Origin: a virus
Virus genome (UHGV): UHGV-1550212
Strand: one strand, 5' to 3'
DNA length: 64,000 nucleotides
Shown: one piece after another, positions 22,237 to 62,813 of the stretch
Layout: every line of letters starts with the position of its first letter
Position numbering within the stretch: the stretch's first letter is position 1
Notes under the pieces: model-generated
What the model was told of the DNA's origin: nothing
What the model saw: the letters and a program-made list of their open reading frames with translations, nothing else
Databases searched by the model: none
Position numbers and translations under genes: made by a program

Positions 22237-22827
22237 TTACAGATGCACATTTACACTTGTCACAAGGTCGCAATCAATCAATGCTTTGAGCGTGTCAATT
22301 TCATTGTAGCCAAATGCACTTGTAGCAGCAAGCACATGATTGACATCAACTGCAGCAGTAATGTCAACCACAACAGTTTTGTCATCTTCAAGTGGCTGCA
22401 AACGTTTAATGAGTTGATGCAGCATATCATCTGCCGGTATGCTTGGCTGTTGTGCAGATTCAGCAACATAAGTGGTTTTGACTGGCTGTTGCGCAGGATA
22501 TGCAGGCACTGGTGACACTGGTTCAACTGAGCGCTCAGTTTGTAGCGCAGCAACTGGCTGCGTTGGCAAAATTGTCTCTGACACAGTACTGCCATCTGCA
22601 GCAGTTGTAGTTACGCTTGGAATCACAATTGGCTGAGAGAACACGTCGTCTTGAGGACGATTCCAGGTTTCAATTTCAGACAATGCATAAAGACGATTTT
22701 GGTCATCCCATGCCTTATCAGCTTCTTCGTCAATTGCAACAATTGTTCGAATTTCTGCTGTTGCTGGCCTATCGCCATTTTCAAGTTGTTCAATGACTCT
22801 GATAGGCGCTATTGATGTTCGTGACAT
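22237..22827 (-). CDS. hypothetical protein with Pro/Ala/Gln-rich linker
   Basis: Track ORF 22237..22866; the first 13 codons overlap a TTGTACAATATAAAAAAAACC promoter-like motif, so the start is placed at ATG 22825-22827 (MSRTSIAPIR). Confidence 0.45.
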   Translation of the reverse strand: MSRTSIAPIRVIEQLENGDRPATAEIRTIVAIDEEADKAWDDQNRLYALSEIETWNRPQDDVFSQPIVIPSVTTTAADGSTVSETILPTQPVAALQTERSVEPVSPVPAYPAQQPVKTTYVAESAQQPSIPADDMLHQLIKRLQPLEDDKTVVVDITAAVDVNHVLAATSAFGYNEIDTLKALIDCDLVTSVNVHL

Positions 22828-22837
22828 ATTTGGATGG

Positions 22838-22860
22838 TTTTTTTTATATTGTACAACGTA
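22838..22860 (-). promoter_or_regulatory. promoter-like element (CGTTGTACAATATA...)
   Basis: Minus strand reads ACGTTGTACAATATAAAAAAAACC immediately upstream of ATG 22827; same TTGTAC+TATA element as at six other loci. Confidence 0.4.
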
Positions 22861-22956
22861 AAGCATGCATTTGCATCTGTGTACGTTATTTTTATGCTGA
22901 GCACTCTGCGTAAAATAGCAAAATGCTTATTTTACGCAGGGTACTACAAATTAACT

Positions 22957-26295: not shown

Positions 26296-26357
26296 ATTGT
26301 TCAGATGTTTTGCTTTGTATATGTATCGAATCTCATTGCATTTGATTATGTATCACT

Positions 26358-26397
26358 GTGTGCATTTTGCATCACGAAGTGCATTTTGCATATCATC
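26358..26397. promoter_or_regulatory. two copies of TGCATTTTGCAT operator-like core
   Basis: GTGCATTTTGCATCAC (26360-26375) and GTGCATTTTGCATATC (26379-26394) in the 100-bp gap upstream of the fibre gene 22957..26295. Confidence 0.4.
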
Positions 26398-44432: not shown

Positions 44433-44478
44433 TATAGTGATATAGTACAACAAAAATCTCAAATTTGCACACTATGAT
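44433..44478 (-). promoter_or_regulatory. composite promoter-like element
   Basis: Minus strand: ATCATAGTGTGCAAATTTGAGATTTTTGTTGTACTATATCACTATA, 15-60 nt upstream of ATG 44417; near-identical copies at 59956-60000 and 62388-62428. Confidence 0.5.
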
Positions 44479-50110: not shown

Positions 50111-53100
50111 TCAAAAGCTTCGATTCATCAGTTCATCAGCAAGTCGTTCAAGTTCAGTAGCAGCTTTTTGTCGCTTGGCTTCTCTTTCTGCTTCAACATC
50201 TGCTTTGCTTACTGGCGATTCCAAGTCTTTTGCAGGTGCATCTTCAATAACAGTCAAATTGCTGTCATCAAACTTGTTGTCAATGTCAACTCGTTTGAAT
50301 GATATGATGCCTGATGACACCTGAGCTTCTGCTTGTTGTTTGTCAAATACAAGGCTGCTAATTGTTGATTGCAGTTTTGTAGATGCCAGCAATCGTTCTG
50401 TGTTATCTGCAAAAATGTCATCAGTAAACAATACATGCAGCATTTGAGCAATCGAATCACGACTTCTGCTGCAGCCACTGTCAAATGCAGGCAACTGCTT
50501 AATTGCATAGATGTCGCCATCATGTACAGTAATTGCATTGAACATGCGTCTTGCAATTGATGCCACCGAATCAAGTACATCTGGTGATTGCGGCGTGTAG
50601 CCTCGTGAATCGAAGTATATGAGTGCAGAGTTCTTAACAATTTGGTCGACTACTTCTGATGCAATTGAGACTGCATCTTTGCTGTTATTGAAGACATCAT
50701 TTAGCATATATGACACAATCTTGATGTTCGACTCATGCATTGTGCCACTTGAACCCGCATCAAATATTGACACTGCATCTTTGATTGATTTGAGTCTTGC
50801 AAGTCGATACATGTCTTTGTTGTCAATGACATACATATCGATAGTCTTCATGATGGTGTCAAACAAGTAATGATGCGATAGTGTTCGCAATGCATGTCGC
50901 CAATCATCAAACACTCGTCTGTCTTCTACAAGATATGTAAGCTTGCCATTTTTCTTGACAAGTTCAAATCTGTCTGATTCTTGAACTTGCTCTGCTGGCA
51001 AATTCATGATAACTTCGAATGTAGCCTGATTGACAAATGATGCAAACATTTTGCCAATCTTGCTGTTCTTTTCTTGACGGTACTCTGCTCGAGCTTCTTT
51101 TGCAGCATTGAGAACTTGAGCAATCATCATGTCATCTGCAACAACATCTTGCACGACTTTGCATTCATAGCCATACGATGACAATGTGTTCTGAATGATG
51201 ACAAGCTGAGTAGCCCATTGTCGCCATTTCTGCTCAAACATATTGAGCTTATACGCAGTCAAGTGAATCTTGATTTCACCTGTGTACGGGTCACGATAAA
51301 AGTACGGTGCATTGAATGCCCATTCAAAGAAATCAAAGAGACTTCTTGAGTCATTGCGCTTTGTCTGCATTTGCAAAATGTCCCAGAATGACAGCTTTTC
51401 AACATTTGTTAATGTCAAGTCAAGCTCGTCATATGCAGTAATGTTTCGTGGGTCGCCATTTGATTTTGTCATACTGAAATACACATATGACTGAATGGAT
51501 ATTTTGCGAAGCCGTGAGTTAAATTGTTCGATTTCTTGACCTGTAAATGCCTCGTCATAAATGACATCAAATTCATAGCTGTCATTGATATCAATGCCAA
51601 CTGACAAGTAATTTGTGCAGAACAGCAGTTCAATATCACCAATTGTGCCAGATTCATTGATTGATTGAACAAAGTCATGCATTGCATTGTCACGCTTGTA
51701 GTACTTGACTTTTGGATTTCTGCCAAGCATCATTCGAACTGCGCCTACAATTGCATGAGTAAATGCGTCGCCTTTGTTTGTTGGGAACAGAATTCGTTTG
51801 CCTGCTTTAATTGCTGTTGAGATATGTGATGCAAGTTTTGTAATCTTGTCGCCGTCATGTTTGCAGCAGACAAATCTGACACCTTTGTTGTAATTAAGCG
51901 GCTTGTCGCAGAATATGACAGTGTCAAAATGACAGAACATGTGTTCAGCTACAGGTGTGCCTGTCATCAAAATGACTTTTGTCTGCAACTTTGTTAAGTT
52001 GTCAATCACATTTGCAGGTACAACATCACGATATGCAGACATTGTCAACAAGTGCGATTCGTCGACGACAACATAGTCATATAAAATTGACACTTCCTCT
52101 GGGTCAGCTAATGTAAATTTATCGAATGTCAAAGCTACATTGACATGCTTAGACAATTCAAGACCTCGTTGACCAAATGAGCAATACATGCCAAGGTCTG
52201 ACATCTCAATCTTTGATTGCAAGATTGATGTGTATGGTTCAATCAGCATGACTCGTTTTCCATCACGAGTAAGCTGCTTGATAAATTCTGTCTTGCCTGA
52301 GCCTGGCCGTGCAATCAAGTAATTGATGCCAGTTACAAATACTTCTTCAAGTTCATGCTTGTATGTTGACAAGTACTCATTTTCTGCAAGTTTGAAGACA
52401 TGCGTATGTCGAAGTTCAAAGTCTTTTTGCTGTGCAACTTTCGACATAATGTACTGACTGATTGCATCTTCTGTATTGTGTTCAGCAATCAGTTCATTGA
52501 CAGTTACAGATGACTTGTTAGCAAACTTGAATTTGAAGCCGTGCTTTTCACGAAGTTCTTTGACAGATGACCATACGCACGGACAAGTGCCTGCTGCATT
52601 ACGTTCAACTGCAGACCTGAATGAGTTTGCCCAGCTGTTATGCTCTGCATTGAACTTTGGATTACCCGAACACATTTGCAAGAACATTTGCAACACATGT
52701 TCATATTGACCACCTGTAGTTGACTTCAAATCATATAGCCATGCAAGTGTATAGGCCAAGCGATATCTACCAGTGTTGTCGTAGTTTTGTGGAGTGATTG
52801 TGAGCATTGTGCCCTCTTCAATCATTGTGATGTCATCACGTTGAGTGAAGACTTGCTCGCCGTCAGTCATTGCAGTCATATGAGACTTCGGCGCATAATC
52901 AAAACGACCTCGAAGTCTATCAAACATTGTCTTCAGTTTGTCGATGCAAAATTTTGCATCAACTGAAGCATAGATGCTAACATCAAACTCTGGTTGCTCA
53001 ATGAATTGCGCGTTTTGATTGATGATGACATCTTTATCACGTGCAACAAACAACGGCTGACTAATTTTGCAAACAGATGCATCAACTACTCGAGATTCAG

Positions 53101-56089: not shown

Positions 56090-56347
56090 TTAATTGTTGA
56101 GATACTGCTGAAGCTCAACTTCTGTTGCAAGTCTACATTGCTTAATATTGAACACTGTCATAATATGACAACTCTTGCATTTATGCCAAATTTCAGCAAC
56201 AGCAGTTTGTGTGTTCTTTGGCAATGAGCGTCTGTACTTGACAATGTCTGTAGTGCCGCAGCATTTACATGTGCCAAGCACTACATACAATTTTGAGTTA
56301 GTCGCGCTCAATTGTGACATGTCTAACTTCTGCTTCTTCATAGCCAT
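56090..56347 (-). CDS. small zinc-ribbon protein
   Basis: 85 aa, ATG confirmed; CKCCG ... CKSCH. Confidence 0.4.
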   Translation of the reverse strand: MAMKKQKLDMSQLSATNSKLYVVLGTCKCCGTTDIVKYRRSLPKNTQTAVAEIWHKCKSCHIMTVFNIKQCRLATEVELQQYLNN

Positions 56348-57719
56348 GCTCTCTTAGCTTTTCAATGAGTGCTTCAACATCTGCTCGATAAGTGTCACGA
56401 TTGTCAGAACGTTCAACTACTTTGTACTCTTTCTTAAGTTCTACAATCTTTGCTTTTAGTTTTTTCTGCTCATCTTGAGTCAATCTGCTGACTGCAATTT
56501 CAAGAACTTTGTGATTGATTGAATGCTCATCAAGAATAGACTTGACTTGTTTAGTAGTCATCTTATGCAGTACAATGACTTCGTCAAGCACAAGTTGAAT
56601 GAACTTCATGATGTCTTCATACCACTGAATTGTAGTACGAATGTCTTCAAGTCGTTTTTGCTTGCGAATTTCATAGAATTGCAAACGCCACTCGACAAAT
56701 CGCATAATGAGTGAACCGACTGTTTTGTATCGACGAATCTTGTCATCGAAGTCAATGACAGTCAAGTTGTCACGTTCAATTCTGCAGAACATTGCAAGAG
56801 TCCAGTACAATGAGTCTTTTGCAAGCAACTCAACAAGTTTTGCTTTCGTAAACTTTATCTCATACAGAATCTTGTCTTTGTGAGAGTAATTTGTCCATGC
56901 TTCAATAATGTCACGGTCAAGCAGCATATTGAGATGGTTTTCATAGCCATCGAATGTGTTATTGTATGGGATTGCAGTTACATTGACTGTAGTGTCATCA
57001 ACAACTTCCATTCGACCATGATGCTCATATACACCATTGACAAGTCGCCATTCTCCTTGCAAGCCTTTGACATACGGCGTAATTTTGCGTTCAGAAATAT
57101 CTTCGCCATCAAGAGCATCAATAACAGCATTGCAAACTTCAATTGGATTACGATTGATAATTGTGCTTGAATAGCCAACCGCGATGCCCATAATTGAGTT
57201 TAGCAAAATTGTGGGCACAATTGGCAGATAAAATTGCGGCTCAACTTCAATGCCCTCTTGCCAACGATTTGTCAGCAACTCATTGTCTTTCATGAGCAAC
57301 TCAAATGCATCTGACAATCGAACAAAGATGTATCGAGGCGCACCTGCATATGGGCTGTAGAATGTACCAAACTGACCCTCACCAATGAAGTATGGAATGT
57401 TCTGCTTAAAGTCCTGAGACATGATTGTGATATTGCCCTCAAGACTTGTCTGGCCGTGTTCGTAACCACCCTCTGCTTTTACATAGCCCGCAAATGCACC
57501 TACAGTTTGCTTAACACCACCTTTAAGACGCTTGAGCGCAACATACATGATTTTTCGTGCAGTAGGCTTAAAGCCATCACGAACATCAGGTATTGCACGT
57601 TCAAATGCAGTGTGTAACGCATACTCTTTATATCGAGTATTCAAAAATTCCGCAATGGAAATTTGAATATCTTGTTCTGTCAATGGTTCTGTGTAAACTT
57701 CTTGTTTTCGTCGTGCCAT
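56298..57719 (-). CDS. DNA topoisomerase II subunit (T4 gp52-like, GyrA N-terminal homologue)
   Basis: Track start 57758 is TTG; ATG at 57719 (MARRKQEVYT) used. ERAIPDVRDGFKPTARKIMYVAL, GQFGTFYSPYAGAPRYIFVRLS and PQFYLPIVPTILLNSIMGIAVGYSS match the GyrA/gp52 breakage-reunion motifs. Confidence 0.8.
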   Translation of the reverse strand: MARRKQEVYTEPLTEQDIQISIAEFLNTRYKEYALHTAFERAIPDVRDGFKPTARKIMYVALKRLKGGVKQTVGAFAGYVKAEGGYEHGQTSLEGNITIMSQDFKQNIPYFIGEGQFGTFYSPYAGAPRYIFVRLSDAFELLMKDNELLTNRWQEGIEVEPQFYLPIVPTILLNSIMGIAVGYSSTIINRNPIEVCNAVIDALDGEDISERKITPYVKGLQGEWRLVNGVYEHHGRMEVVDDTTVNVTAIPYNNTFDGYENHLNMLLDRDIIEAWTNYSHKDKILYEIKFTKAKLVELLAKDSLYWTLAMFCRIERDNLTVIDFDDKIRRYKTVGSLIMRFVEWRLQFYEIRKQKRLEDIRTTIQWYEDIMKFIQLVLDEVIVLHKMTTKQVKSILDEHSINHKVLEIAVSRLTQDEQKKLKAKIVELKKEYKVVERSDNRDTYRADVEALIEKLREHGYEEAEVRHVTIERD

Positions 57720-57740
57720 TGTAGCTAATTTGATTTTATT

Positions 57741-57760
57741 TCCTATATTATTGTACAACG
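57741..57760 (-). promoter_or_regulatory. promoter-like element upstream of topoisomerase gene
   Basis: Minus strand: CGTTGTACAATAATATAGGA; contains the palindromic TTGTACAA core. Confidence 0.4.
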
Positions 57761-58920: not shown

Positions 58921-59164
58921 TTTGTGTATGTTCTTGATTTGCTTGTTCTGCTAAGTTGTTTATGAATGCTTTGAGCAATGTAATGATTGTTGTTAGCAAC
59001 TGAATTTGAAACAATACAATGCTAAACACGACAATTGCTACAACGCAAAATGAAATGAAGAGCATATTGATGTCAAATTTGTTTGCTATCAATGTTTGCA
59101 GCCAAGTTATGACTGCAAACATTGAAATCAGTATGAATGCTTTGTGCTGTGATAACGATTTCAT
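58898..59164 (-). CDS. small two-transmembrane-segment protein (holin-like topology)
   Basis: 88 aa, ATG confirmed; two hydrophobic segments (FILISMFAVITWL and FISFCVVAIVVFSIVLF) and a polar C-terminus. Confidence 0.35.
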   Translation of the reverse strand: MKSLSQHKAFILISMFAVITWLQTLIANKFDINMLFISFCVVAIVVFSIVLFQIQLLTTIITLLKAFINNLAEQANQEHTQNDSGTAN

Positions 59165-59880
59165 TTGAAATGTGTGGATGTTGGATTAGTGTCGGTCATT
59201 CTAACATGCCAATCATAAATGAACCATCTTGCGAGGTCATCATTTTTGATGTTATGAGTTTTGACATACTGTTCAGGACCTAATGCCTCACCAGTTTCAG
59301 GATTGACTGCGAAATGAGATTCATCTACATTAGTAGACTTGTTTTTGATGTTTGAGATTCGGAGCTTTGTATGCAGTTCAGTGCCATCAGATTGCAGTGT
59401 TTTGACATAGAATGCAGTTTTTGTCGTTGCTTCATTGTCAAGCCATACTCCAAACTTAACTCCGTGCGATTTCCAGTATGCATTGTCAGCATCCCTGATT
59501 GCTTTGAAGTTCGGGTCATCCAACCAAGGTTTGAAGACGTATACAGCATGTTGTTCTTTTCGAGTGATTTCGCCTTTGCCTTCACAAACTGTATGATACA
59601 GCCGCATTGCAGTTTCTTCATCAAAATAGTAAGTCAGATTGCCTGGCTTATCAAATGTGCCAAGCTGTTGACCATCGATTACAAGAATGAATGTGTACCG
59701 CGAATCCTTAAAGAATTCTACTTGTACAGGCTGTTTGTGCTGTTTGCTGTTAAGCAGTCTGTCAATTGTAATGACTGCCCAGTTGGTGCCTGTCTTTGTT
59801 TTGTTGCCGTGAAACAGTTCAGGATATGAAACTGTGTAAGGCAATGCTTTGTACTTCCAATGTTCATTAAAGCTTTTCAT
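59161..59880 (-). CDS. hypothetical protein
   Basis: 239-aa ORF, ATG confirmed. Confidence 0.5.
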   Translation of the reverse strand: MKSFNEHWKYKALPYTVSYPELFHGNKTKTGTNWAVITIDRLLNSKQHKQPVQVEFFKDSRYTFILVIDGQQLGTFDKPGNLTYYFDEETAMRLYHTVCEGKGEITRKEQHAVYVFKPWLDDPNFKAIRDADNAYWKSHGVKFGVWLDNEATTKTAFYVKTLQSDGTELHTKLRISNIKNKSTNVDESHFAVNPETGEALGPEQYVKTHNIKNDDLARWFIYDWHVRMTDTNPTSTHFK

Positions 59881-59955
59881 ATGTAGAGATTTTTGTAGTT
59901 TGTATCAATTGCATTCTATATCAATTGTATCTTGTATCAAATACATTATATTGAT

Positions 59956-60000
59956 ATATGATAATTGTACTACAAAAATCCCAAATTTGCACACTTTGAT
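59956..60000 (-). promoter_or_regulatory. composite promoter-like element
   Basis: Minus strand: ATCAAAGTGTGCAAATTTGGGATTTTTGTAGTACAATTATCATAT, about 75-120 nt upstream of ATG 59880. Confidence 0.5.
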
Positions 60001-60039
60001 AATCAAAAGTGCAAACAAAATTCAAAGTTATATTGTACA

Positions 60040-60069
60040 TCACAAAGTGCAAATTTGCACTTTGTGATG
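60040..60069. promoter_or_regulatory. perfect 30-bp palindrome (candidate operator)
   Basis: ATCACAAAGTGCAAATTTGCACTTTGTGAT is its own reverse complement; core GTGCAAATTTGCAC is shared with the composite promoter-like elements. Confidence 0.55.
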
Positions 60070-60215
60070 TTAAAATGCCCCATTGTACAATATTTTGTGC
60101 TATTTTGCACAAAGCAGCATGTTAAAATGTAACCATTTATAACGCTGCAAAATGTCTGCATAAAATAAGCAGCTTAGCAATCTAAGCTGCTGTCATTGTA
60201 TGCATGCAGTCACTG

Positions 60216-60701
60216 TCATTTGTAGTGCTCAGTTATGTATGCTGAGCATAGCAATACAACTGATATGCAAATGACAATGTATGTTGGTGTAATCAGTGTC
60301 ACATTAAATAGCAATGCAGTCAATGCGCATACTGTTACTGATATAAGTGTTGAAATGAATACTGCATATGTACTAAACTTGCTTTTGAATAGACGCTCAA
60401 TGATGTACGTTGTTACAATAGATAGCAAGACTATGCATACAAATAACAGCAACCAAGTTGAGTTTGACGTTGTCGGCTCTTCAATAAATTGCAATGTTGC
60501 AGATGATACTTCAATGTTGTTTGGCGCTTGTAAAGTGCCACTTGCTGCATCTGCGTACATCACAGTTAAGTAGTGTCGTTGAATTTCTGCTGCGTCTACT
60601 TTATAGATTCTATGCCATGCAACATCTGATATGATGTATGTTGCAGCCATAAATGCAGCAATGCATAGCATATAAGAGCCAAACTTTGCAATCGGTTTCA
60701 T
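60216..60701 (-). CDS. integral membrane protein (about 4 transmembrane segments)
   Basis: Track start 60749 is TTG; ATG at 60699-60701 (MKPIAKFGSYM); multiple long hydrophobic stretches. Confidence 0.45.
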   Translation of the reverse strand: MKPIAKFGSYMLCIAAFMAATYIISDVAWHRIYKVDAAEIQRHYLTVMYADAASGTLQAPNNIEVSSATLQFIEEPTTSNSTWLLLFVCIVLLSIVTTYIIERLFKSKFSTYAVFISTLISVTVCALTALLFNVTLITPTYIVICISVVLLCSAYITEHYK

Positions 60702-61079
60702 GCAAATATATTTTTGTTTGTATATGTACATAAAAGAGCAAGTTCTCAATGTGGAGAACTTGCTCAGCTGACCTGTTGCCAGGTGAAAGCGTGGTGCAGC
60801 ACCTTGTGCTGCAATGGCTATGCTGCCATCGCCATAACGGGCTGAGCATTGCCCAGCATCATTACACGACCAGCTGCATTAAGCGTACGCTTTGCTTTGT
60901 TGAAAAATTTGCCAGTTATCTGGTATCTGCACATCTATTCAAGCGACCTACTATGCAATCAAATGCCTGTCGAGCCCAATGTTTGAGCAGTTGTTTGTCA
61001 GATGCTCAGCTGACTGCAGTCTTTCTGAGTGTATCAAGTTCAGCGATTCTGCATCTTTGCTAAATGGCAATAGTTCAGG

Positions 61080-61155
61080 TGGACTCGCCGAGAATCGAAC
61101 TCGGGTCTTACATAGCGCATCCTTGACTTGGTCCTGTAAACAGGGTTGTCAACAT
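61080..61155 (-). pseudogene. tRNA-like 3' fragment (T-arm plus acceptor 3' strand only)
   Basis: Minus strand: CCGAG-TTCGATT-CTCGG followed by CGAGTCC-A, but no matching 5' acceptor strand, D-arm or anticodon arm within 80 nt upstream. Confidence 0.3.
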
Positions 61156-61160
61156 GCATT

Positions 61161-61231
61161 GCAATACGACAGGACTCGAACCTGCGACCTCGGATTGGAC
61201 GTCCGCGCTCTTACCGCTGAGCTACGTATTC
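61161..61231 (-). tRNA. tRNA, probably tRNA-Gly (anticodon TCC); Trp (CCA) not excluded
   Basis: Minus strand: GAATACG-TA-GCTC-AGCGGTAA-GAGC-GCGGA-CGTCCAA-TCCGA-GGTC-GCAGG-TTCGAGT-CCTGT-CGTATTG-C. Canonical D- and T-arms; anticodon stem has a G-A pair and position 33 is G, so the register is uncertain. Hand fold. Confidence 0.5.
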
Positions 61232-61321
61232 TTATCAATTGACTGCACTGCAATGCAATCAATCGTGCCAATGATATTTGACGCATAATTGCAGTTATGC
61301 GTAACAATTCAAATGTCATTG

Positions 61322-61394
61322 AGCCAACTGCAGGAGTCGAACCTGTAACCTGCTGATTACAAATCAGCTGCTCTGCCAATTGAGCTAAGTTGGC
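61322..61394 (-). tRNA. tRNA-Thr (anticodon TGT)
   Basis: Minus strand: GCCAACT-TA-GCTC-AATTGGCA-GAGC-A-GCTGA-TTTGTAA-TCAGC-AGGTT-ACAGG-TTCGACT-CCTGC-AGTTGGC-T; perfect 7-bp acceptor and 5-bp anticodon stem. Confidence 0.8.
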
Positions 61395-61476
61395 ATAAAG
61401 TCGTTGGGCCATTGCAACCCAAACCTATCATCTTTGTCTAACCAAAGATGCAAGTGTTCTCTTACACCACGACTTG

Positions 61477-61548
61477 TAGCCGAACTTGGAGTCGAACCAA
61501 GCTTTCGAGAATGAAAATCTCGCGTCCTAACCGATAGACGAAACGGCC
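61477..61548 (-). tRNA. tRNA-Glu (anticodon TTC), acceptor stem imperfect
   Basis: Minus strand: GGCCGTT-TC-GTCT-ATCGGTTA-GGAC-G-CGAGA-TTTTCAT-TCTCG-AAAG-CTTGG-TTCGACT-CCAAG-TTCGGCT-A; D-arm identical in form to E. coli tRNA-Glu, but acceptor pairs 6-67 and 7-66 are T-T. Confidence 0.5.
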
Positions 61549-61635
61549 AAGAGCAGTTCAAGTCTGCAGCATTGAACTGCGGAAACAATGCCTGTACGGG
61601 CAGCAAATTGTGCAGATACAGCGACATTGCAAAAT

Positions 61636-61728
61636 CACACCGAACCAAGTTTGTGGCTCTTCTGTCTCATAAAAACAAGTAATCATTACACTTGGCACCA
61701 ATGATTCTGATGTAAAAATCGGTGTGTT
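61636..61728. ncRNA. structured RNA-like element with 8-bp terminal inverted repeat (not a canonical tRNA)
   Basis: CACACCGA (61636-61643) pairs with TCGGTGTG (61721-61728); internal hairpin CAAGT-AATCATTAC-ACTTG; no T-loop consensus. Lies between tRNA-Glu and tRNA-Ser. Confidence 0.25.
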
Positions 61729-61731
61729 ATG

Positions 61732-61816
61732 CGGAGAGTAAGGGATTCGAACCCCTGGTACGTTGCCGTACAGTGGTTTTCAAGACCACCGCCATCGACC
61801 GCTCGGCCAACTCTCC
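61732..61816 (-). tRNA. tRNA-Ser (anticodon TGA), long variable arm
   Basis: Minus strand: GGAGAGT-TG-GCCG-AGCGGTCGAT-GGC-G-GTGGT-CTTGAAA-ACCAC-TGTACGGCAACGTACC-AGGGG-TTCGAAT-CCCTT-ACTCTCC-G. Confidence 0.8.
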
Positions 61817-62010
61817 ATAAAACATTGCATAAGCATTCTTATCTCTTGATGAGACCAAGTAGCTAATTTGGCAAGTTTGTTATATCTATCGTGACTGTTG
61901 CAGTTTGTTTGTCACTCAATACACAAAACTTTCGAACATTCATTGACAGCACTGCAATATCGCTTTTTAAGCTTAGCCATCAATGTATTTATGCAATGTA
62001 TAACAATTCG

Positions 62011-62092
62011 TAGCCAAACCGGGACTTGAACCCAGACTCCTAATGGAACAACATTTTGAGTGTTGCGTGTCTACCAATTCCACCATTTGGCC
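62011..62092 (-). tRNA. tRNA-Leu (anticodon CAA), long variable arm
   Basis: Minus strand: GGCCAAA-TG-GTG-GAATTGGTAGA-CAC-G-CAACA-CTCAAAA-TGTTG-TTCCATTAGGAGTC-TGGGT-TCAAGTC-CCGG-TTTGGCT-A. Confidence 0.75.
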
Positions 62093-62182
62093 ATTTACAA
62101 ATGCAATCTATTTCACAACTGTTTGCATTTGCATTGTTTAACACTAAAAATATGATTCATCTAATCAAAAACCAGAGAATTG

Positions 62183-62256
62183 TAGGGTAGACAGGACTCA
62201 AACCTGCGACCACGTGGTCCCAAACCACGCATTCTAATCAACTGAACTACTACCCT
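62183..62256 (-). tRNA. tRNA-Pro (anticodon TGG)
   Basis: Minus strand: AGGGTAG-TA-GTTC-AGTTGATTA-GAAT-G-CGTGG-TTTGGGA-CCACG-TGGTC-GCAGG-TTTGAGT-CCTGT-CTACCCT-A; all stems pair. Confidence 0.8.
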
Positions 62257-62262
62257 AAGTAG

Positions 62263-62334
62263 TTGAACCGTCTGGACTCGAACCAGAAATGGCTGAACCA
62301 AAATCAGCTGTGTTACCGATTACACCACGATTCA
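62263..62334 (-). tRNA. tRNA-Gln (anticodon TTG)
   Basis: Minus strand: TGAATCG-TG-GTG-TAATCGGTAA-CAC-A-GCTGA-TTTTGGT-TCAGC-CATT-TCTGG-TTCGAGT-CCAGA-CGGTTCA-A; U1-A72 as in bacterial tRNA-Gln. Confidence 0.75.
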
Positions 62335-62450: not shown

Positions 62451-62813
62451 TTAATTGTACAATATGACTCTGTCTTTAAGTTTGTGCATGTGTAGCACGC
62501 TTGTAATATCTACTGGCAACTTATATGACCCATCAGATATTGCAAATGCAGCAAGTTGCATAATCAAATCTGCATTGTCTGTAAGAACTTCTGCAAATTT
62601 ACTGGCATCACAACATGCATAATACTTGCGAATTGTTGTTGCTTGTTTTTGTATGATGACGCGCACGTAAACAGTTTGAGCAATGATTGCGCGTCGTAAA
62701 TCAACTTTGACAATACACATAGTGTCATCGTGGTCATTTATGACATGTCGCCATACACCGTCATTGCAAATGCCGTGCTGTGCTATAAGTATTTTCGTGA
62801 TATCAGACATCAT
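62451..62813 (-). CDS. hypothetical protein
   Basis: 120-aa ORF, ATG confirmed. Confidence 0.45.
   Translation of the reverse strand: MMSDITKILIAQHGICNDGVWRHVINDHDDTMCIVKVDLRRAIIAQTVYVRVIIQKQATTIRKYYACCDASKFAEVLTDNADLIMQLAAFAISDGSYKLPVDITSVLHMHKLKDRVILYN

Follow-up and report, generated by a model that had tools for sequence, protein, structure and literature searches.

Three predicted tandem promoters, one overlapped by a perfect palindrome, in a probable control region of an uncultivated T4-like phage

The 64,000-nt stretch of the viral genome UHGV-1550212 analyzed here (the window, by which the whole stretch is meant; the parent genome measures at least 175 kb) contains a gap at positions 59881-60215, between the genes 59161..59880 and 60216..60701. 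As an earlier reading of the same letters (hereinafter the original prediction) had stated, both these genes lie on the minus strand, which also holds nearly all the other genes of the window. Followed along this strand, the gap presents an intrinsic terminator, three successive promoter-like elements (P3, P2 and P1), an AT-rich leader and then the ATG at 59880. This arrangement is very probably the transcription control region of a minus-strand operon extending from a gene for a protein of 239 amino acids (aa) to topoisomerase II in an uncultivated T4-like phage, and a perfect palindrome lies over its middle promoter-like element. A region combining a terminator with tandem promoters is of a known general kind, and nothing suggests a new kind of biological system; the phage clade and the promoter consensus are undescribed. 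The view of the gap as a regulatory hub, which the original prediction based on the palindrome, nested GTGCAAA/TTTGCAC half-sites and a composite promoter-like element, is borne out by the features identified in and around it:

60082..60110, minus strand: P3, the distal promoter-like element GTGCAAAATAGCACAAAATATTGTACAAT, with a -35-like box at 60104-60110 and a -10 at 60082-60087.
60032..60060, minus strand: P2, the predicted middle promoter GTGCAAATTTGCACTTTGTGATGTACAAT, with a -35-like box at 60054-60060 and a -10 at 60032-60037.
59964..59992, minus strand: P1, the predicted proximal promoter GTGCAAATTTGGGATTTTTGTAGTACAAT with the full consensus, with a -35-like box at 59986-59992 and a -10 at 59964-59969, followed by the conserved TATCATATA.
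60037..60070: perfect 34-bp palindrome ACATCACAAAGTGCAAA-TTTGCACTTTGTGATGT, with the 30-bp core ATCACAAAGTGCAAATTTGCACTTTGTGAT at 60039-60068.
59986..60015: imperfect 30-bp dyad TTTGCACTTTTGAT-T-ATCAAAGTGTGCAAA (minus-strand reading), the downstream arm of which is the P1 -35 box.
60067..60129, minus strand: 11-bp direct repeat CATTTTAACAT in two copies (60119-60129 and 60067-60077) with 41 bp between them, from the alignment of repeats and units.
60159..60191, minus strand: intrinsic terminator (stem-loop 60191->60168), with the 10-bp stem AGCAGCTTAG/CTAAGCTGCT, a 4-nt loop and the T-rich tail TATTTTATGC, from the terminator scan.
59881..59963, minus strand: AT-rich leader of 83 nt (78% A+T), with the 16-bp tandem repeat unit CAATTGATATAGAATG (plus-strand repeats at 59893-59951).
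60216..60701, minus strand: upstream gene, an open reading frame for a predicted membrane protein of 161 aa, with 161-aa homologues of 90-97% identity.
59161..59880, minus strand: downstream gene, 239 aa, the first of a co-directional block reaching the topoisomerase II A-subunit gene (56298-57758).

The palindrome had been described in the original prediction as a perfect 30-mer at 60040-60069. Its perfection stands, but the 30-bp core lies at 60039-60068 and the symmetry extends further, to 34 bp. No other perfect palindrome in the 64 kb reaches this length; those ranking second and third, of 32 and 26 bp, are terminator hairpins, and the longest palindrome in each of 200 dinucleotide-preserving shuffles averaged 17.3 bp with a maximum of 30. 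When placed on P2, it covers the positions from about -46 to -13: the upstream half, ACATCACAAAGTGCAAA, comprises the -35-like box and its upstream flank (-46 to -29), and the downstream half is the exact mirror of the upstream half, filling the spacer of P2. On the minus strand P2 accordingly reads GTGCAAA TTTGCACTTTGTGATG TACAAT, with ACATCAyAAAGTGCAAA as the mirrored module, and the palindrome is flanked by ACAATATAAC (minus strand) and TAAAATGCC (plus strand). Hence, the palindrome is not a separate element but P2 with its -35 box and flank inverted into its own spacer. The earlier suggestion that its core reuses the box of the promoter elements is therefore correct, the box in question being the -35-like GTGCAAA of P2. 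The same type of upstream flank recurs at P1 (ATCAAAGTGTGCAAA) and at a promoter at 44474 (ATCATAGTGTGCAAA).

The palindrome belongs to a local cluster of related symmetries. Five GTGCAAA/TTTGCAC half-sites fall within 59986-60110, shuffled sequences never exceeded three in any 130 bp, and the half-site is not enriched window-wide (30 occurrences versus 41 expected). The two copies of CATTTTAACAT lie 52 bp apart from start to start and define a 52-bp P3 cassette, to which P2 corresponds as a paralogous unit of 50 bp; each unit opens with CATTTTAACAT and closes with GTACAAT, and GTGCAAA-3 nt-GCAC is common to the two. P3 holds just a short dyad, GTGC-N6-GCAC, seen as TTTGTGC-N6-GCACAAA at 60094-60113; this is the second inverted repeat of the original prediction, which exists but not with the boundaries 60097-60114 assigned to it. 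In the window GTGC-N6-GCAC is confined to P2, P3 and a single coding site (2.8 occurrences expected). The centres of the three dyads, near 60000.5, 60053.5 and 60103.5, are about 51-53 bp apart, or roughly five helical turns. The boxes TTGTACA(A/T), which had also been singled out, are present as TTGTACA at 60033-60039 and 60083-60089, with a third copy, TTGTAC, at 59965-59970, within the composite promoter of the original prediction; rather than being separate boxes, they are the reverse complement of the -10 (G)TACAAT. An 18-bp palindrome, GATGCAAAATTTTGCATC, at 52943-52960 lies inside a gene with no -10 downstream and was taken as a chance occurrence.

As a hairpin, the palindrome would form a 15-bp stem with an AAUU loop, at -22.3 kcal/mol when folded as RNA and -16.6 when folded as DNA (z = -6.95). 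It is nonetheless not an intrinsic terminator, as had been anticipated: the terminator scan does not call it, its stem is 35% G+C and no T-run follows. A search of the gap against Rfam, at the gathering and E-value thresholds, gives nothing beyond spurious miRNA-like hairpin matches.

The three promoter-like elements are unified by the pattern GTGCAA-N17-TACAAT, which has exactly three matches in the window, namely P3, P2 and P1, all on the minus strand and all in the gap. With the spacer relaxed to 15-19 nt (GTGCAA-N15-19-TACAAT), the window still returns three matches versus 0.25 expected and none on the plus strand. The single composite promoter previously proposed at 59956-60000 is borne out in as much as P1 lies there, but the hub comprises three tandem minus-strand promoter-like elements and not one. 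A looser version of the pattern, GCAAA-N15-GTAYHAT, has ten matches on the minus strand of the window and none on the plus strand; nine of these precede a minus-strand gene start by 25-202 nt or the tRNA array by 65 nt, and the remaining one, at 22848, lies across the start annotated for the gene 22237-22866. The genes preceded by copies of the class include those for the clamp loader, a 1199-aa protein, two small proteins and the topoisomerase IIA subunit (31 nt before an internal ATG at 57719). P1 in particular is nearly identical to the promoter at 44474->44432.

Further, a position-weight profile was built exclusively from promoters located elsewhere than in the gap, seven of them in the window and six in relatives, and used to score 127,916 positions. 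With this held-out profile P1 scores 43.4 bits (rank 3) and P2 15.4 bits (rank 9), and the top plus-strand score within the gap is -6.8. The profile consensus, TGCAAA-N11-TGTnGTAC(A/T)AT-AT, i.e., GTGCAA-N17-TAyhAT, is matched fully by P1, to an intermediate degree by P2 and weakly by P3. Additionally, the motif is found in the same syntenic gap of five distant relatives, L002 (with two promoters), L033, L034, L037 and L038, which encode homologues of the 239-aa protein with 30-65% identity. In these contigs the gap separates a small membrane-protein gene from the 239-aa homologue, and the genes for the two topoisomerase II subunits flank the locus (e.g., L034/L038); in L002 the T-run of a terminator abuts the promoter box. 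Taken together, motif and position suggest, with good confidence, that the GTGCAA-N17-TACAAT elements are a phage-specific promoter class conserved across the clade. A reading of the elements as plus-strand promoters of the Bacteroidota type was set aside, given a spacing of 14 instead of 19-21 bp and an orientation pointing away from any gene.

Certain elements overlap or adjoin this class. A TTGACA-like sequence at -26 combined with a CATATA -10 fits P1 and three other members but not P2 or P3, and could possibly represent an overlapping second promoter or a late-type TATAAAAT box. A box resembling that of T4 late promoters (cTATAAAAT / ATATAAAAATA) is seen about 5-10 nt after many GTGCAAA-class promoters, in the window (62399->62380) as well as in L034, L033, L038 and L002, which hints at a stacking of middle-type and late-type promoters. 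Other tandem arrays, built of GATGCAAAATGCA units, are located upstream of late/structural genes at 700-784 and 26340-26395 of the window (minus-strand reading); they consist of 2.5 units of about 28 bp and two units of about 20 bp, ending in TGATATGTACATAT / TGATACATAAT, and may constitute a different promoter or regulator class.

The gap was also compared among close relatives. Nine close strains, with about 90% identity or higher, span all or part of the gap, and the set of cassettes changes even among strains that are 90-98% identical:

Window: P3, palindromic P2 and P1.
L021: P3 and palindromic P2; the contig stops at the palindrome.
L001/L009, L010, L041 and L042: palindromic P2 and P1; P3 absent.
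L004 and L006: the contig begins within the palindrome, followed by the P2 -10 and P1.
L043: a single P3-like promoter (GTGCAAAATAGCGCAAAGCGTTGTATAAT) fused to the sequence downstream of the P2 -10, then P1; palindrome absent.

Short direct repeats are the sites at which promoter cassettes come and go from strain to strain. The P1 -35 box, its -10 and most of its spacer are constant in all the close strains; L041 and L043 depart from the rest by a single base in the spacer (TTTGTGAT for TTTGGGAT) and in the sequence that immediately precedes the box. P2 is identical across the strains carrying it except for a mirrored double substitution: at the positions 11 from the centre on either side, the window has C...G and seven other strains have T...A. 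Both alleles of the palindrome are perfect, with a length of 34 bp in the C/G form of the window and 32 bp in the T/A form, where the outermost pair is broken. L001, L010, L041 and L042 have the T/A allele in full, whereas in L004, L006 and L021 the contig end leaves only part of it. The chance that two independent substitutions would mirror each other in this way is about 1% (1/33 x 1/3), a figure which is our own estimate and not the output of a tool. The long palindrome is absent from all the distant relatives at the syntenic gap, which keep one or two promoters. It is, in sum, an unusual strain-specific elaboration of one promoter, and one that is dispensable in nature.

The palindrome was also looked for in larger collections. 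The exact 22-mer of the palindrome has no match in IMG/VR because the relatives carry the T/A allele. The 20-mer core is found at three loci in IMG/VR (including L009, the relative's own contig) and at 22 loci in metagenomes; among these, the related phages are L009, L010 and L021 only, the others being unrelated palindromes. The 20-nt core, AAAGTGCAAATTTGCACTTT, also recurs in about 15 unrelated metagenome contigs (L011-L031), often within longer palindromes (L014, L015, L016, L018), and may serve as a recurrent operator or hairpin elsewhere.

The elements bordering the promoters show conservation patterns of their own. The stem of the terminator is invariant in all the close strains, and its 4-nt loop takes the form ATTG, CAAT (the reverse complement of ATTG) or CACT (in a comparison including L001, L010 and L041); in L001 it is ATTG that has been swapped for CAAT. 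Homogenization of arms and inversion of the spacer between them are described signatures of template switching (PMC8604942, PMC8794818), and this loop inversion, about 100 bp from the palindrome, implies that templated copying acts at the locus. As judged from its position, the terminator should end the transcript of the upstream tRNA, tmRNA-like and 161-aa genes. The leader, in contrast to the stem, is highly variable: copies of CAATTGATATAGAATG number 5.6 (perfect ones) in L001 (2890-2978), about two in the window, L010, L005 and L043, and none in L041, and in L004, L006 and L042 the repeat is replaced by unrelated sequence. At the 60, 100 and 150 bp scales the leader is the least stable duplex of the window, and among 100-mers the minimum falls at 59879-59978 (-107.5 versus a mean of -132.9, sd 5.3), with other gaps reaching -110.

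Neither of the flanking genes could be linked to a known family. The length of the upstream product, 161 aa, is borne out by its homologues, and the protein has no Pfam or PHROG match. The 239-aa protein has no sequence match in Pfam, PHROG or PDB, and its AF2 model, although confident (pLDDT 84.9), has no significant match in PDB or BFVD. Among 1.8 billion representative proteins it has eight matches, five of which are distant homologues of 233-248 aa with 32-38% identity (P0003-P0007); the remainder are P0001 (98% identical) and two short local matches in much longer proteins. Neither a near-identity DNA comparison of the locus with the INPHARED phages nor a tblastn search with the 239-aa protein returned a match. 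A role of this protein as an autoregulator was considered, and the sequence and fold searches gave no functional assignment.

The interpretation that best accommodates these observations combines the terminator, the stacked promoters, the palindromic P2 and a two-way site for whatever reads the promoter box, and as a whole is given a probability of roughly 0.55. Under it, the stacked promoters would, with considerable confidence, drive and time the operon running from the 239-aa gene to topoisomerase II. The reader of the GTGCAAA box, be it a sigma region or a box-binding activator, would be offered the box in both orientations, back to back, at P2. Paired or reverse-oriented binding would then cover P2 from -46 to -13, that is, the -35 box and the spacer. 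Such occupancy could limit or time P2 and obstruct transcripts from P3 and from read-through of the terminator, while leaving P1 free. The perfect symmetry would probably have been produced, and probably kept, by hairpin-templated (template-switch) copying. The additional role of the palindrome as a two-way site is the tentative part of this scheme and falls somewhat short of even odds. A putative dyad site for a dimeric regulator is plausible on the basis of the sequence, in that a 34-bp perfect dyad overlaps the promoter P2; on the other hand, no related 18-bp sites occur in the window and no protein of the helix-turn-helix type was identified.

Several observations run counter to this interpretation. 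The assignment as promoters draws on motif, strand, position and conservation, and P3 agrees poorly with the full promoter profile (score -9.3, rank 42 of 127,916), holding the two boxes but little else, so that its membership in the class is weak. Set against the sigma-70 consensus, the elements have a spacing of 17 and a -10, TACAAT, with agreement at 5/6 positions, but the -35-like box GTGCAA agrees with TTGACA at only 3/6, and a generic scan lists none of P1-P3. The consensus of Bacteroidota promoters has TTTG at -33 and TAnnTTTG at -7 (PMC4747536); in ten aligned promoters of the present class no TAnnTTTG stands at a fixed position (the host being inferred), and in the window this motif is not strand-biased (32 minus, 41 plus). 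The T4 middle promoter has a MotA box, (a/t)(a/t)(a/t)TGCTTtA, at 12 +/- 1 bp from the -10 (PMC2988021), to which the box found here, GTGCAAA(T) at 14-15 bp from the -10, does not conform. With regard to symmetry, just two alleles of the palindrome exist, amounting to only one covariation event, and one close strain, L043, lacks the palindrome altogether. The dyad upstream of P1 changes in one arm only (ATTAAAATGTGCAAA) in L041 and L043, without compensation, and the P3 dyad is broken in L043 (GCAC to GCGC). As for a regulator, the 18-bp core of the palindrome is single-copy in the 64 kb even when three mismatches are allowed, 34 perfect bp exceed what a simple dimer site needs, and the mirrored double substitution is not predicted by protein contacts; hairpin pairing or templated copying accounts for it no less well. 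No MotA, AsiA or sigma domain was detected among the approximately 30 window proteins scanned (the window covering 64 kb out of at least 175 kb), and a literature search on GTGCAAA and TTTGCAC in the role of phage promoter or operator brought up no relevant description.

In a competing explanation the palindrome has no function of its own: P2 would be a plain promoter, and its symmetry a by-product of template switching that extended a short GTGC-N6-GCAC dyad, with the same copying transferring new mutations from arm to arm. This is somewhat doubtful, and is rated nearly equal to the two-way site. T4-like phages typically carry cruciform-cutting nucleases, in light of which a long AT-centred palindrome is expected to be costly unless tolerated or useful; moreover, the palindrome is present and perfect in eight of the nine close strains while its upstream surroundings carry indels, and the broken outermost pair of the T/A allele has not been re-homogenized. 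What speaks for the by-product is that the paralogue P3 has merely the short dyad, that the mirrored C/G to T/A change preserves perfection, that strains differ by an inversion of the terminator loop at this same locus, and that the palindrome is missing in L043 and in every distant relative. Template switching is known both to create and to maintain perfect stems (PMC8794818, PMC8604942, PMC13100816). The pairing capacity of the palindrome could alternatively be its function, either as an RNA hairpin near the 5' end of P3 and read-through transcripts, where it might be a stabilizer, a pause/attenuator or a processing site, or as a DNA cruciform that hides the P2 -35 box in highly supercoiled DNA. 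The favourable folding energies, the compensatory nature of its sole variation (C-G to U-A) and its placement at about +5 to +38 of the presumptive P3 transcript are all consistent with such a role. An AT-rich centre, here AAATTT, favours cruciform extrusion. However, four palindrome-bearing strains lack P3, and there the hairpin would be transcribed only via read-through of a good terminator; no U-run follows it, no Rfam family is matched apart from the spurious hairpins, and L043 dispenses with it, leaving this explanation improbable.

The remaining alternatives fare considerably worse. A transcription-primed replication origin of the type of T4 oriF/oriG or the T7 primary origin, with the palindrome and the 16-bp repeats as accessories, is highly unlikely. 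Transcription would there enter the readily melted AT-rich repeats, and its RNA would serve as the primer of replication. Origins of both these types consist of promoter(s) with a downstream unwinding element. PMC2988021 (refs 126-127) has citations for T4 origins dependent on a middle promoter. The locus resembles these in that the phage is T4-like (clamp-loader lid domain, T4-type terminase, topoisomerase II, RNase H-like nuclease, baseplate wedge), in that stacked promoters precede the most easily melted stretch of the window at three scales, and in that the leader contains iteron-like tandem repeats. It differs in showing neither a strand switch of the genes nor a GC-skew inflection, the cumulative skew falling steadily across the site where the original prediction had proposed looking for a discontinuity. 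Further, the AT-rich element is hypervariable, its repeats ranging from 0 to 5.6 copies or being replaced outright, the palindrome is not conserved in L043 and the distant relatives, other intergenic regions are almost as unstable, and all these features are equally expected of a strong promoter with an AT-rich leader. Very little credence is accorded to a more speculative variant, in which the GTGCAAA promoters, the cruciform-capable palindrome and the unstable leader make up an R-loop origin or a supercoiling-sensing switch, read in a host without Shine-Dalgarno sequences (probably of the Bacteroidota) by a phage factor that would replace host -35 recognition as an independent analogue of T4 sigma appropriation. 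Two last options were rejected as scarcely credible. In one, the palindrome would be a pair of back-to-back divergent promoters, with P2 firing leftward and P2' (GTGCAA-N18-TAAAAT, 60047-60076) rightward, antisense to the 161-aa gene; a plus-strand TGCAA-N-TAAAAT match does exist at 60048-60076, but the best plus-strand profile score in the gap is the negative value given above, TAAAAT is lost in L010, L041 and L042, and nothing is encoded rightward. In the other, the palindrome would be a packaging or telomere-resolution site, an idea that the ending of three short-read contigs (L004, L006 and L021) at the palindrome might seem to favour. These breaks are confined to short-read contigs, namely the Logan k-mer assemblies L004/L006 and the ENA contig L021, and are the expected outcome of de Bruijn assembly at a perfect palindrome longer than k; contigs from other assemblies, of 175 kb (L001/L009), 2.3, 1.8 and 2.5 kb (including L010, L041 and L042), cross it, and L043, a Logan contig in which the palindrome is lacking, shows no break. 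T4-type terminases, to which that of this phage belongs, package without a specific site. As the palindrome is moreover lacking in L043 and in all the distant relatives, the proposal in the original prediction of a replication or packaging signal fails, and neither an origin nor a packaging role of the palindrome is supported.

Among described elements, the closest to this control region are the promoter-early stem-loop (PeSL) cassettes of T4-type phages, small composites of a terminator and a promoter whose recombination gives rise to indels in closely related phages (PMC2839356, PMC4122927). As in the PeSLs, a T4-like phage here combines an intergenic terminator stem-loop, an AT-rich stretch and a promoter, the promoter consensus is repeated across the genome, and cassettes are gained, lost or replaced at short repeats, in this case the cassettes of P3 and P2 as well as the repeats of the leader. 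Unlike the PeSLs, the promoter is not sigma-70-like at -35 (GTGCAA), the stems are AGCAGCTTAG and an AT-rich palindrome instead of polyG/polyC (GGGG...CCCC), the long palindrome lies inside the promoter without a T-run instead of forming an upstream terminator, and only promoter units are shuffled, with no gene cassette.

T4 middle promoters, in which a MotA box at -30 and a sigma-70 -10 are read via sigma appropriation (PMC2988021, PMC6755090), offer the closest functional analogy for the design of a box plus a -10, notwithstanding that the present elements fall outside that class. The two have in common a good -10 of the TAnnnT type, a phage-specific box in place of the host -35, a location upstream of replication and nucleotide-metabolism genes and of tRNAs, and a tandem arrangement with other promoter types. 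They are distinguished by the box and its distance from the -10 (GTGCAAA(T) at 14-15 bp versus TGCTTtA at 12 +/- 1), and by the fact that MotA binds as a monomer and that palindromic MotA sites are not described. The operators of the repressor and Cro in phages of the lambda/P22 type are dyads of 14-20 bp over phage promoters, imperfect and present at several genomic sites. Comparable to these are the placement of the dyad over a -35 box and spacer and the occurrence of several related dyads at the regular interval described above; in contrast, the dyad here is 34 bp long, perfect and unique in 64 kb, and its half-site is the promoter box itself.

Beyond the gap, the window encodes a T4-type large terminase, a gp44-like clamp loader, DHFR, an NAD-dependent ligase, an RNase H-like 5'-3' exonuclease, the topoisomerase II A subunit, a baseplate wedge protein and seven tRNAs. 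The best matches of the topoisomerase are to Chryseobacterium jumbo phages, the Sphingomonas phage PAU and the Prevotella Lak phages. A Shine-Dalgarno-like 4-mer precedes none of the 54 gene starts in the window, and the leaders are 44% A. The absence of Shine-Dalgarno sequences and the topoisomerase matches suggest that the host is probably of the Bacteroidota type. A TAnnTTTG-like sequence, TATATTTG, stands ahead of two ATG codons, by 2 nt for the gene at 60701 and by 8 nt for the gene at 62813. Directly downstream of the array of seven tRNAs (61161-62334), ARAGORN calls a permuted tmRNA at 60727-61169 on the minus strand, with the tag peptide GKFFNKAKRTLNAAGRVMMLGNAQPVMAMAA; the Rfam model tmRNA_permuted (RF04321) aligns over its full length at 60818-61138, at a sub-threshold score (30.8 bits versus 47, E = 4.8e-4). 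Inside this tmRNA call, L043 has an 889-bp insertion (1232-2120) replacing 61084-61157 of the window, which encodes a 279-aa DUF559 protein (a weak Pfam match) that is possibly homing-endonuclease-like. Elsewhere, a C10 run (616-625, intergenic) and a G9 run (924-932, in the plus-strand ORF 785-1261) are potential slippage sites, such runs being otherwise lacking.

In practical terms, perfect palindromes of at least 31 bp break k-mer assemblies and can mimic genome ends. For the biology of the phage, the analysis supplies a testable consensus, TGCAAA-N11-TGTnGTAC(A/T)AT, for an uncultivated T4-like clade, which is unlike the promoters of the presumed host or of T4, and which would help both in annotation and in tracking down the factor that redirects the polymerase. 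The palindrome itself is a clean natural case of a promoter spacer mirroring its own -35 module, and the strains with it, without it and with the mirrored allele make a direct comparison of expression and fitness possible.

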